A stretch of DNA of 1,270 nt from Escherichia coli (GTDB lineage Bacteria; Pseudomonadota; Gammaproteobacteria; Enterobacterales; Enterobacteriaceae), in assembly GCF_003334335.1 (NCBI RefSeq), contig NZ_QOWQ01000114.1. The stretch is one strand, 5' to 3'. The notes under the pieces were generated by a model. That model searched no databases. It saw only the letters and a program-made list of their open reading frames with translations, and was not told where the DNA came from. Made by a program: the position numbers and the translations under genes. Numbering within the stretch: the stretch's first letter is position 1; each line of letters starts with the position of its first letter. This document shows, piece after piece, positions 105 to 1,010 of the stretch.

Positions 105-855
105 ACACTTCGAATGCCAGTTGAGGGGTAAAGACGTCCCGTTCAGCGTTGTAATTAAGTGAACTGGCACTGTTGAATGATTCAATGCGTTCCACAAGAA
201 CTTGCGTACGGGTTTCTTTACTTGCGGGAGCATATGGCGAACCTACCCAGGATTTGTCGATGCCTATATTTCTTGCGACGTTCGTGCTGTCTGCAGACGA
301 AAGCGGTACATGAGTAAAAATGTCTTTATTTAACATCCGTAACCCATGAATCTTGGTGATTGGGTAGCCGTACTGATCTACAACATGACGTATAAGATCG
401 CGTAGTTTAGCCCGACACGCTCTCGGTCGTTTTGCATCGTATTCCCCCATCGAGCCGATGCAGACGCGGGGAAACTCATGGCACAGACGAATAAATCGCT
501 CATCTGGTTCGTTCATGTGCCACACCGGAGCACCAATAAATTTACCGTGAGGCCATGCCGCAATCAGGGCGTCATTCTCTTCACTGGTTCCGCCGATAAC
601 ATCCGGGATAACCGCGAATGAGAAACGAGGGTGATTACCCCAGCGTTCAACAAATCTGTAATATTCATTCCAGTCTATGGCCTTGTTTTTTGTCCAGAAT
701 GTGAATGCACCATTATCAAGAGCAAATGATTGGGTGACTTCGGAAGCCAGATCAATCTGAGCTGGATTAGCAAAACTGATGAATGCGTGTCTGCCTTTCC
801 AGGCTTTCAACGCACAGGTATCGGGAGTTATTGGACCACCGTGAAAATGAATCAT
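103..855 (-). CDS. Putative TGT-superfamily transglycosylase, 250 aa: queuine/preQ0 tRNA-ribosyltransferase-like catalytic core without the zinc-binding subdomain; candidate DpdA-like 7-deazaguanine DNA transglycosylase.
   Basis: Complete 753-nt ORF, ATG 855..853 to TGA 105..103, with GGGAGAG at 865..859 upstream. By-eye collinear motif matches to E. coli Tgt as recalled from memory: FALDNGAF (D47) vs ILTDSGGFQ; FSFAVIPD (D85) vs IVMIFDEC; CIGSMGE (132-138) vs AVGGLAVGE; PITKIHGL vs PRYLMGVG; SSADSTNVARNIG (D189, ARNIG 194-198) vs MFDCVMPTRNARNG. No CxCxxC motif follows. Confidence 0.8.
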   Translation of the reverse strand: MIHFHGGPITPDTCALKAWKGRHAFISFANPAQIDLASEVTQSFALDNGAFTFWTKNKAIDWNEYYRFVERWGNHPRFSFAVIPDVIGGTSEENDALIAAWPHGKFIGAPVWHMNEPDERFIRLCHEFPRVCIGSMGEYDAKRPRACRAKLRDLIRHVVDQYGYPITKIHGLRMLNKDIFTHVPLSSADSTNVARNIGIDKSWVGSPYAPASKETRTQVLVERIESFNSASSLNYNAERDVFTPQLAFEV

Positions 856-1010
856 ACACTCTCCCGTTTATTATTTATCTCCTCAGCCAGCCGCTGTGCT
901 TTCAGCGGATTTCGGATAACAGAAAGGCCGGGAAATACCCAGCCTCGCTTTGTAACGGAGTAGACGAAAGTGATCGCGCCTACCCGGATATTATCGTGAG
1001 GATGCTTCAT
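852..1010 (-). CDS. Small hypothetical protein, 52 aa ([52 protein letters not shown]); not on the supplied ORF track.
   Basis: Hand translation of the minus strand: ATG at 1010..1008, TGA at 854..852, no internal stops. GGGGAG at 1024..1019 lies 8 nt upstream of the ATG. The ATG overlaps the upstream stop (ATGA) and the stop overlaps the downstream ATG at 855..853 (ATGA). It exactly fills the gap between the two large ORFs. Confidence 0.55.
859..865 (-). promoter_or_regulatory. Shine-Dalgarno (GGGAGAG) for the 250-aa TGT-like CDS
   Basis: Minus-strand sequence CGGGAGAGTGTATG: purine-rich SD with a 3-5 nt spacer to the ATG at 855..853; it lies inside the 3' end of the 52-aa ORF. Confidence 0.6.

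Follow-up and report, generated by a model that had tools for sequence, protein, structure and literature searches.

The small open reading frame (ORF) at 852..1010 on the minus strand of the window, the whole 1,270-nucleotide stretch of Escherichia coli DNA that was analysed, is best explained as an orthologue of lambda orf60a that belongs to a phage recombination module and likely encodes a DNA-binding regulator, the ATGA at its downstream end having come from a cassette swap; we put the probability of this reading as a whole at about 75%. The gene would encode 52 aa and would be part of the early leftward (pL) operon in a lambdoid (pro)phage. This (pro)phage matches Escherichia phage PhiR5_1 exactly and has 99% identity to Shigella phage SfI.

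Identity and coding constraint of the small ORF

Profile searches placed the product in Pfam PF07026 (DUF1317; i-E=2.3e-33, residues 3-54 of a 54-aa form against model positions 1-52 of 60) and in PHROG 1998 (E=5.7e-33), and tblastn gave 94% identity to lambda Orf60a over 52 residues (lambda J02459 31196..31351). The original prediction had found no family that it could name and had considered the ORF unannotated. The first statement does not hold: the gene is lambda orf60a, Pfam DUF1317 and PHROG 1998, carries a name in public records ("DUF1317 family protein" in the SfI RefSeq entry and from PGAP in E. coli genomes; "orf60a" in PhiR5_1) and has been studied experimentally (PMC6213356, PMC8614690). 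The second is correct for the ORF track supplied with the sequence, from which the ORF is probably missing through a 60-aa cut-off, and incorrect for the public records, which annotate it. The identity of the small ORF is already known and the finding as filed adds nothing new; orf60a is one of the exo-xis region's genes and has been on the lambda map for decades.

Re-reading of the sequence confirmed each element of the predicted arrangement, an intact 52-codon minus-strand ORF with ATGA at both flanks. The ATG lies at 1010..1008 and is followed by 52 sense codons and a TGA at 854..852. At the upstream junction (CAATGAAG at 1012..1005) the TGA of exo (1009..1007) shares 4 nt (ATGA) with the ATG of the small ORF, and at the downstream junction (GTATGATT at 857..850) the ATG of a 250-aa gene (855..853) overlaps the TGA of the small ORF. 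An in-frame ATG at 1016 is the start of the 54-aa form in public annotations. We consider ATG-1010, and thus the 52-aa form, the better start, because a Shine-Dalgarno sequence, GGGGAG, read at 1019..1024 of the minus strand inside the exo coding sequence and kept in lambda and AU5Stx1, is 8 nt away from it and only 2 nt away from ATG-1016. The Pfam and PHROG profiles likewise start at the Met of the 52-aa form. For the downstream gene, a Shine-Dalgarno sequence GGGAG was read at 861..865 (minus strand), within the last codons of the small ORF and 5 nt before ATG-855, and the DNA alignment shows an equivalent GAGGGG in front of lambda orf63. The small ORF therefore has the layout of a coupled gene, with ATGA at both ends and a Shine-Dalgarno sequence at suitable spacing in each upstream coding sequence, from which we infer that its translation would actually be coupled. 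In such a case orf60a would be translated right behind exo, since ribosomes ending at the exo TGA would sit on the ATG of the ATGA with GGGGAG 8 nt upstream.

The double ATGA had been regarded as very unlikely to occur by chance. Junction counts in SfI, a near-identical sister phage, showed 4-nt overlaps at 14/62 same-strand junctions and at 9/29 of those in early operons, and four other SfI genes carry them on both sides. Because some 23-31% of the junctions are of this type, a double ATGA is ordinary. Homologues of the transglycosylase-like gene that lies downstream show the same 4-nt overlap with whichever unrelated gene is upstream. The length of the small ORF is no evidence by itself either, since spurious ORFs of 77 and 116 aa are present on the opposite strand of the window. 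As far as sequence can tell, the proof of the gene is homology together with coding constraint. The DUF1317 frame was intact in 106 of the 106 loci examined, and the median dN/dS of about 0.26 indicates purifying selection. Variable sites among close alleles were distributed 5/3/10 over the three codon positions; between clades, synonymous sites were saturated and dN was 0.2-0.48. An alignment of 20 sequences, down to 44% identity, revealed an invariant core formed by D6, V10, W24, P27, N34-P-L-K-A-Q39 and E43. Family members are mostly 52-53 aa long, the tail of the lambda protein being exceptional. By homology and purifying selection, then, the predicted ORF is a genuine protein-coding gene.

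Gene order and the downstream cassette

Upstream of the small ORF lies the 3′ end of a lambda-type exo of the YqaJ family (1007..1270, minus strand), which encodes the C-terminal 87 aa (PHROG 149 exonuclease, E=4e-21). This fragment is annotated as exonuclease in PhiR5_1 and SfI, and its C-terminus, ...GFVYGEQWQ*, resembles that of lambda Exo. The order gam-bet-exo-ORF in both phages is the lambda order, and in lambda exo (31348..32028) and orf60a (31169..31351) likewise overlap by 4 nt. The gene for lambda Orf60a (lambdap39) and the window gene both follow exo directly and share the ATGA overlap, the Shine-Dalgarno sequence, the embedded hairpin and the pL operon context; they differ in length (60 aa in lambda, 52 aa here) and in the gene that follows (orf63 in lambda, a DpdA-like gene here). 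Of 86 DUF1317 loci, about 82 are preceded by exo, which they overlap by 4 nt, and in other clades of the family the gene comes after RecT, YqaJ, Gp157 or Sak4-SSB. Downstream, the same 86 loci carry orf63 (67 loci), a DpdA-like gene (11, and 2 more in which it is truncated), a PAPS-reductase-like gene (3) or a Dam methylase. The exo-3′/orf60a segment was found in 3568 of 5426 complete E. coli genomes, 98 of which have the junction with the DpdA-like gene. These data suggest that orf60a goes with the recombination module gam-bet-exo-orf60a, as part of its conserved 3′ edge, and not with the transglycosylase-like gene. Because orf60a is common after exo and the enzyme is only occasionally next to it, it is not a dedicated partner of this enzyme.

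The DpdA-like gene (TGT superfamily; 103..855, minus strand, 250 aa) is of the "singleton DpdA" type, and genes for preQ0 synthesis are absent from its surroundings. Known TGT or DpdA structures come closest to that of its product, a TGT-type (beta/alpha) barrel. The protein did not match the TGT HMM PF01702, giving no Pfam match even at E<=10 and no NCBIfam match, and in this family test the support came solely from PHROG 887 and from the DpdA region of phage 7-11, with which it shares 35% identity; a sequence search of the PDB returned no match. The enzyme has 6181 homologues; it points to a large family, without a Pfam entry, of singleton enzymes of the DpdA-like kind in prophages of enterobacteria.

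Comparison with lambda and Stx phages delimited a mosaic cassette at 78..852 that replaces orf63 and approximately the first 28 codons of orf61. In the DNA alignment, homology to lambda breaks off right behind the ATG at 855..853 and returns at 77, and the blastn blocks end at positions 218 and 994 of the PhiR5_1 representative, which correspond to 853 and 77 of the window. With Stx phages, megablast aligned just two pieces, together 39% of the window. Beyond the cassette, the 5′ part of an orf61-like gene (1..95, minus strand) has a new start at 95..93 and is N-terminally truncated or chimeric compared to the orf61 of Stx phages; PhiR5_1 annotates it as "hypothetical protein orf61" (L002 3880..4095), and it shares homology with the orf61 of lambda and AU5 from window position 77 on. 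The DpdA-like cassette would thus have taken the place of lambda orf63, with the exchange falling precisely on the start codon that both share. The downstream ATGA would be a by-product of this event, because the swap fell on the start codon: ATG-ATT makes a TGA in the orf60a frame, so the protein ends after 52 aa, whereas the ATG-CAC of lambda leaves the frame open for 8 more codons and the protein reaches 60 aa. Since the junction is at the start codon, the 3′ end of orf60a would give a Shine-Dalgarno sequence and a start site to whichever cassette gene comes next, and the differences in the C-terminal tails of DUF1317 members would have the same origin. The locus represents a clean case of modular phage mosaicism with the junction exactly on a start codon.

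Predicted fold and proposed functions of the DUF1317 protein

The AF2 model of the protein (pLDDT 89.6) contains strands E8-10, E13-18 and E23-25, forming a three-stranded antiparallel beta-sheet packed on a C-terminal helix, H35-51. The same sheet and helix architecture is found in integrase arm-type domains (lambda Int 1-64, Tn916 Int and HPI Int) and in AP2/ERF domains, although identity is 7-13% with no detectable sequence similarity. In addition, the arm-type domain is the N-terminal part of a recombinase, whereas the DUF1317 protein, a putative DNA binder, stands alone. A PDB search with the DUF1317 profile gave noise only (E ~1). Among 119 family representatives, drawn from 1.84 billion proteins, DUF1317 was found fused, in either order, to a small transcription-regulator-like HTH (phrog_323, E=1e-7). 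On the predicted structure, the protein is most likely a small DNA-binding regulatory factor, and the fold agrees with a role already proposed in print, that of a small pro-lytic regulator that binds DNA. According to deletions published for lambda and Phi24B, the protein shifts development toward lysis and is non-essential (PMC6213356, PMC8614690); a CRISPRi screen (PMC10695390) also found it non-essential. In lambda, orf60a is reportedly seen in ribosome profiling, according to the citations in PMC8614690 and PMC6213356; the authors of the latter did not obtain soluble protein. The phenotypes of the lambda deletions are weak and could include polar effects downstream or loss of the terminator-like hairpin embedded in the gene.

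According to the original prediction, the DpdA-like transglycosylase would have the small protein as its dedicated accessory subunit or specificity factor, kept in fixed stoichiometry by ATGA coupling, and the 4-nt overlap with a Shine-Dalgarno sequence within the small ORF fits that idea. The same succession of DUF1317, ATGA and a PHROG 887 enzyme also recurs in Klebsiella phage KO-TP1 with a very different DUF1317 allele. However, 4-nt overlaps are the norm in these operons, and when the conservation and synteny of the ORF beside TGT-like genes were checked, neither obligate co-occurrence nor concordant divergence was found. The enzyme adjoins orf60a in just the 98 E. coli genomes and 13/86 sampled viral loci given above, and lambda and Stx phages have orf60a without such an enzyme. 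DUF1317 is absent from 7/9 contexts of the enzyme, whose upstream gene is usually Ea22-like, DksA-like or another small protein without a DUF1317 HMM match. Homologues at 68-90% identity are preceded by Ea22-like, DksA-like, 214-aa, 57-aa, 210-aa or 56-aa proteins, none of which scores against the HMM, and where a relative of DUF1317 was sought in front of the enzyme, in contexts that included Vibrio phage D453, Cronobacter prophages and E. coli, the small ORFs had no match to it. In KO-TP1 the enzyme is 86% identical to that of the window and the adjoining DUF1317 protein 44% identical, a discordance indicating that the pair was joined by recombination and not by co-inheritance. Moreover, a phage DpdA expressed alone inserts preQ0 into E. 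coli plasmid DNA (PMC6884629). Known partners in the TGT family, eukaryotic QTRT2 and bacterial DpdB, which acts with DpdA, have in common with this locus only the idea of a second protein encoded beside a transglycosylase. The 52-aa protein is unlike both QTRT2, a paralogue of TGT, and DpdB, a large ATPase of the ParB-like kind, and does not co-occur with the enzyme family. The gene dpdB is named in PMC10164549. We consider a role as accessory subunit very improbable.

Slightly less credible still is that the product is unimportant, the ORF persisting as a translated leader or spacer that passes ribosomes on from exo to the following gene, or its DNA being conserved for a tL3-like terminator. 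This would agree with the overlaps on both sides, the Shine-Dalgarno sequences in place and the module junction exactly at the downstream ATG, and also with an intrinsic-terminator-like hairpin embedded in codons 22-32 of the ORF (914..946, minus strand), which has a 9-bp stem with 6 G-C pairs, a UAUUU loop and a U-rich tract (RNA MFE -17.6 kcal/mol, z -2.7). We take this hairpin to be the probable equivalent of lambda tL3. It is conserved only in lambda-type and closely related alleles, however, and distant clades keep the protein but not the hairpin. Amino acids are conserved along the full length of the ORF with synonymous sites saturated, residues that do not vary between clades include D6, V10, W24, P27 and the motif NPLKAQ, and the AF2 fold is confident, all of which argues against an unimportant product. 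A scan of the window for promoters yielded none above shuffle expectation, and an Rfam scan yielded one sub-threshold match, which is meaningless.

DNA-modification genes downstream of DUF1317

Apart from lambda and Stx phages, the position directly behind DUF1317 is repeatedly taken by DNA-modification genes. The direct +1 neighbour is DpdA-like in the window and KO-TP1, PAPS-reductase-like in L027, L111 and SPC32H, a Dam of the PF05869/TIGR01712 type in L064, L107 and L113, MT-A70 in L006, L096-L102 and L112, and a D12 Dam in phi80. The 75-aa genes that lie between DUF1317 and a methylase in Mulock and Tyrion were compared with orf63 and rejected as homologues of it.

A purely positional model does not fully explain this recurrence. 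One tentative and rather unlikely explanation is that DUF1317 is a small DNA-binding helper or controller of the modification enzyme directly downstream (DpdA-like, Dam, MT-A70 or PAPS-reductase/DndC-like), for example in timing or targeting the modification of phage DNA. Such an enzyme comes immediately after DUF1317 in about 10 of 19 distinct arrangements and belongs to five unrelated families; the order is always DUF1317 and then the enzyme, and the two genes usually overlap by 4 nt; a further 3 arrangements (the Mulock, Tyrion and P0092 loci) have the enzyme one gene further on; and the AF2-predicted fold is DNA-binding-like. Nevertheless, the arrangements are not independent events, so that the adjacency has no real P-value, and in the commonest one, that of lambda and Stx phages, there is no modification gene, although there too the protein is conserved and shows a phenotype (PMC6213356). 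In some contexts of DUF1317 no modification gene is nearby, and prophages without DUF1317 also carry modification genes downstream of their recombination genes, in the equivalent region, which fits a shared cargo slot. Nor was any fusion of DUF1317 to a modification enzyme present among the 119 family representatives, whose long matches were frameshifted exo/orf60a/orf63 calls or the small-HTH fusions.

Extended to the operon as a whole, and at the same doubtful level, DUF1317 might head a recurrent cargo slot in lambdoid early-left operons: a DNA-binding protein of predicted Int-arm/AP2 fold, whose 3′ end starts interchangeable modification genes, would aid or regulate modification of the phage DNA, and in lambda the cargo would have been replaced by orf63. 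Were DUF1317 a helper of this kind, it would be a functional analogue of the controller (C) proteins of R-M systems and of lambda Ral, which are also small proteins of phages or mobile elements beside or acting on DNA modification. The former are HTH dimers with C-boxes and the latter acts on host EcoKI, whereas the predicted fold of DUF1317 is different. The frequent presence of anti-restriction DNA-modification genes behind DUF1317 provides a testable lead on the mechanism of orf60a.

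Identity and coding status of the small ORF

The minus strand carries every gene in the window, as part of a lambdoid early-left (pL) operon, and reading along it bore out the coordinates of the 52-aa small ORF (1010..852, minus strand). Upstream, exo ends in ...GEQWQ with its TGA at 1009..1007, and the start ATG of the small ORF (1010..1008, within CAATGAAG at 1012..1005) overlaps this stop. After the exo overlap come 52 sense codons, ending at a TGA (854..852, within GTATGATT at 857..850) that lies over the ATG (855..853) of the 250-aa transglycosylase-like gene. The 54-aa form found in public annotations starts from an alternative in-frame ATG, at 1016. 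Because the Shine-Dalgarno sequence GGGGAG (1024..1019, minus strand) lies 8 nt from ATG-1010 and 2 nt from ATG-1016, and because the Pfam and PHROG profiles begin at the second Met, the 52-aa start of the original prediction is the better call. A second Shine-Dalgarno sequence, GGGAG (865..861, minus strand), is found 5 nt ahead of the downstream ATG.

The original prediction could name no family for the product and regarded the ORF as unannotated. Profile searches gave matches to Pfam DUF1317 (PF07026, E=2.3e-33) and PHROG 1998 (E=5.7e-33), and the protein is 94% identical to the product of lambda J02459 31196..31351, that is, orf60a. The lambda exo/orf60a overlap is formed by the same ATGA (exo 31348..32028, orf60a 31169..31351). 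The small ORF is thus the known lambda orf60a/DUF1317 gene and not a novel one. Lack of annotation was true only of the ORF track supplied for the prediction, probably because the gene falls below a 60-aa cut-off; public records do annotate it, as 'DUF1317 family protein' in the SfI RefSeq entry, as 'orf60a' in a PhiR5_1 note and by PGAP in E. coli chromosomes. Escherichia phage PhiR5_1 (PV340545.1, 4356-5625) is 100% identical to the 1270-base window and Shigella phage SfI 98.9% identical, and both show the gene order N ... kil, gam, bet, exo, small ORF, 250-aa gene, orf61-like, DksA-like, ea22, xis, int. In phi80 the DUF1317 homologue (1501-1650 of the collected phi80 locus; NC_021190.1 about 27379-27528) is not annotated as a CDS by RefSeq; its ORF sits between gp35 and the damL pseudogene and overlaps them by 4 nt and 1 nt. 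One database protein (P0241, 114 aa) is an in-frame Orf60a-Orf63 fusion made at the 28-nt overlap of these genes, a frameshift variant if not a sequencing error.

ORF length is no evidence of a gene here, since the plus strand of the window holds ORFs of 77 and 116 aa that overlap real genes. The 116-aa ORF (783..1133, plus strand) lies antisense to the start of the 250-aa gene, all of orf60a and the end of exo; we found no evidence for its gene status. The small-ORF frame was open in all 106 collected loci (41 distinct DNA sequences), which included lambda, Stx phages and phi80, phages of Klebsiella, Salmonella, Enterobacter and Yersinia, and prophages of Yokenella, Atlantibacter and Pseudescherichia. 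Comparisons between clades showed saturation at synonymous sites and dN of 0.2-0.48; dN/dS, where computable, ranged from 0.12 to 0.52 (median 0.26). Close alleles had 5, 3 and 10 variable sites at codon positions 1, 2 and 3, respectively. Neither of the two signs that would have refuted the prediction, a disrupted frame or missing coding constraint, was seen, and the small ORF is a real gene.

Junction with the 250-aa gene

The 250-aa protein (855..103, minus strand) had no match in Pfam and NCBIfam or in a PDB sequence search. Its match to PHROG 887 'queuine tRNA-ribosyltransferase' (E=2e-99) and its alignment to the DpdA region of Salmonella phage 7-11 (35% identity, E=1e-27) make DpdA-like a reasonable label, judged from sequence. 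Phage 7-11 is one of the 'DpdA only' phages, and its DNA contains low dADG levels (PMC6884629).

The double ATGA overlap had been considered very unlikely by chance and a sign of stoichiometric co-translation with this enzyme, and the small protein was proposed as a possible accessory subunit or specificity factor. Exact 4-nt overlaps are in fact common in these phages: they make up 14 of the 62 same-strand junctions in the complete SfI annotation and 9 of 29 in its two early operons, and four SfI genes besides the small ORF (P, ren, a ninA-like gene and ninE) have one on both sides. Relatives of the 250-aa gene overlap by 4 nt with an upstream gene of whatever kind, be it Ea22-like (RothD), DksA-like (Eeyore), or a gene for a 53-aa (Vibrio phage D453) or 57-aa protein (Cronobacter prophages).

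Synteny was compared in 86 loci, of which IMG/VR contributed 80, all with the lambda-type allele. In about 82 the upstream gene was exo, overlapping by 4 nt. The following gene was orf63 (DUF1382, 28-nt overlap) in 67 loci, and otherwise, always with a 4-nt overlap, the 250-aa gene (11 loci plus 2 truncated), a 414-aa PAPS-reductase-like gene (3 loci) or a phage N6-adenine methyltransferase (TIGR01712, 1 locus). The exo-3′/orf60a segment occurs in 3568 of 5426 complete E. coli genomes, at 5070 places, but only 98 genomes have the 250-aa gene joined to it. The 250-aa family itself has 6181 homologues; relatives at 68-90% identity lie behind Ea22-like, DksA-like, 214-aa, 57-aa, 210-aa or 56-aa proteins, none of which was scored by the DUF1317 HMM. 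These data give no support to a transglycosylase-specific subunit. A single further phage, Klebsiella phage KO-TP1, showed this adjacency; it has an enzyme 86% identical to that of the window, whereas its DUF1317 protein (phi80-type allele) is only 44% identical. This discordance, together with the sparse co-occurrence, indicates that the two genes were joined by recombination and not inherited as a unit.

Aligned with the DNA of lambda and of Stx1 phage AU5, the window showed unbroken homology from the end of exo through all of orf60a, ending right after the ATG at 855..853 (ATG included), which in lambda is the orf63 start codon, and returning at window position 77, inside orf61. We conclude that a cassette (78..852) replaced orf63 along with the first 28 or so codons of orf61. 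In lambda a C follows the ATG (ATG-CAC) and orf60a runs 8 codons longer, to 60 aa; in the window the next codon is ATT and the resulting ATGA ends orf60a after 52 aa. A length of 52-53 aa is found in most of the family. The downstream ATGA overlap is thus a by-product: the apparent coupling to the transglycosylase-like gene follows from the exchange of one module for another at a common translation-initiation site. At the right junction, inside orf61, what remains is a truncated orf61-like gene that starts anew at 95..93 (minus strand). The SfI RefSeq start of this gene (gp33, 3880-4233 of the SfI locus), 131 nt inside the DpdA-like gene, is probably mis-called; PhiR5_1 (3880-4095 of its locus) uses the later ATG at window 95, a better fit to the mosaic junction.

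DNA-modification genes behind DUF1317

Outside the lambda/Stx arrangement, DUF1317 is very often followed directly by a gene for a DNA-modification enzyme, usually with a 4-nt overlap and at locus positions around 1656, 2653 or 3156. Five unrelated families occupy this slot (collected loci L006, L027, L064, L091, L095, L096-L102, L107 and L111-L113): MT-A70 methylases, PF05869 Dam (including L064), a D12 Dam pseudogene (phi80), PAPS-reductase/DndC-like proteins (including L027) and the DpdA-like enzyme (window, KO-TP1). The Mulock, Tyrion and P0092 loci have a methylase one gene beyond the neighbour of DUF1317. A functional tie between DUF1317 and the modification genes could be argued from the constant order and from direct adjacency in 10 of about 19 arrangement types by our count, yet we consider it unlikely. 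The commonest arrangement and several other DUF1317 contexts have no modification gene, prophages that lack DUF1317 carry such genes in this same stretch behind the recombination genes, and the arrangements are not independent events. For these reasons the pattern was treated as a cargo-slot effect, and the recurrent modification cassettes are the only part worth following.

Fold and likely role of the small protein

The AF2 model of the small protein (20-sequence alignment) was confident (pLDDT 89.6), with strands at 8-10, 13-18 and 23-25 and a C-terminal helix at 35-51. It independently reproduces published Orf60a modelling, in which the protein was compared with Tn916 Int, lambda Int, CedA and AtERF (PMC8614690). 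The family is small: a set of 1.84 billion proteins yielded 119 representatives at 50% identity. True domain fusions were found only with a small HTH resembling transcription regulators (phrog_323 'transcriptional regulator, D5-like', E=1e-7), in either order; the fusions, and the stand-alone 57-aa protein described below, were seen among P0267, P0271, P0278, P0300, P0332 and 2331-2504 of locus L114. Deletion of orf60a in lambda and Phi24B led to more survivors, more lysogens and delayed induction, the effect being mild in lambda (PMC6213356), and the gene is non-essential (PMC10695390). The best-supported mechanism is that of a small regulatory protein of the early-left operon, putatively DNA-binding. 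Cronobacter prophages encode a stand-alone 57-aa protein matching phrog_11492 in the equivalent slot (RecT, 57 aa, DpdA-like, MT-A70), and the P0271 extension weakly matches phrog_11492 as well.

The coding (minus) strand of the small ORF also contains an intrinsic-terminator-like hairpin at 946..924, with a 9-bp stem (GAGGCUGGG-UAUUU-CCCGGCCUU) and a U-rich tract to 914 (MFE -17.6 kcal/mol, z -2.7). Its position corresponds to about 31255-31287 in lambda, and presumably it is tL3, the lambda terminator downstream of exo. The hairpin is kept in lambda-type alleles and absent from distant clades that retain the small protein.
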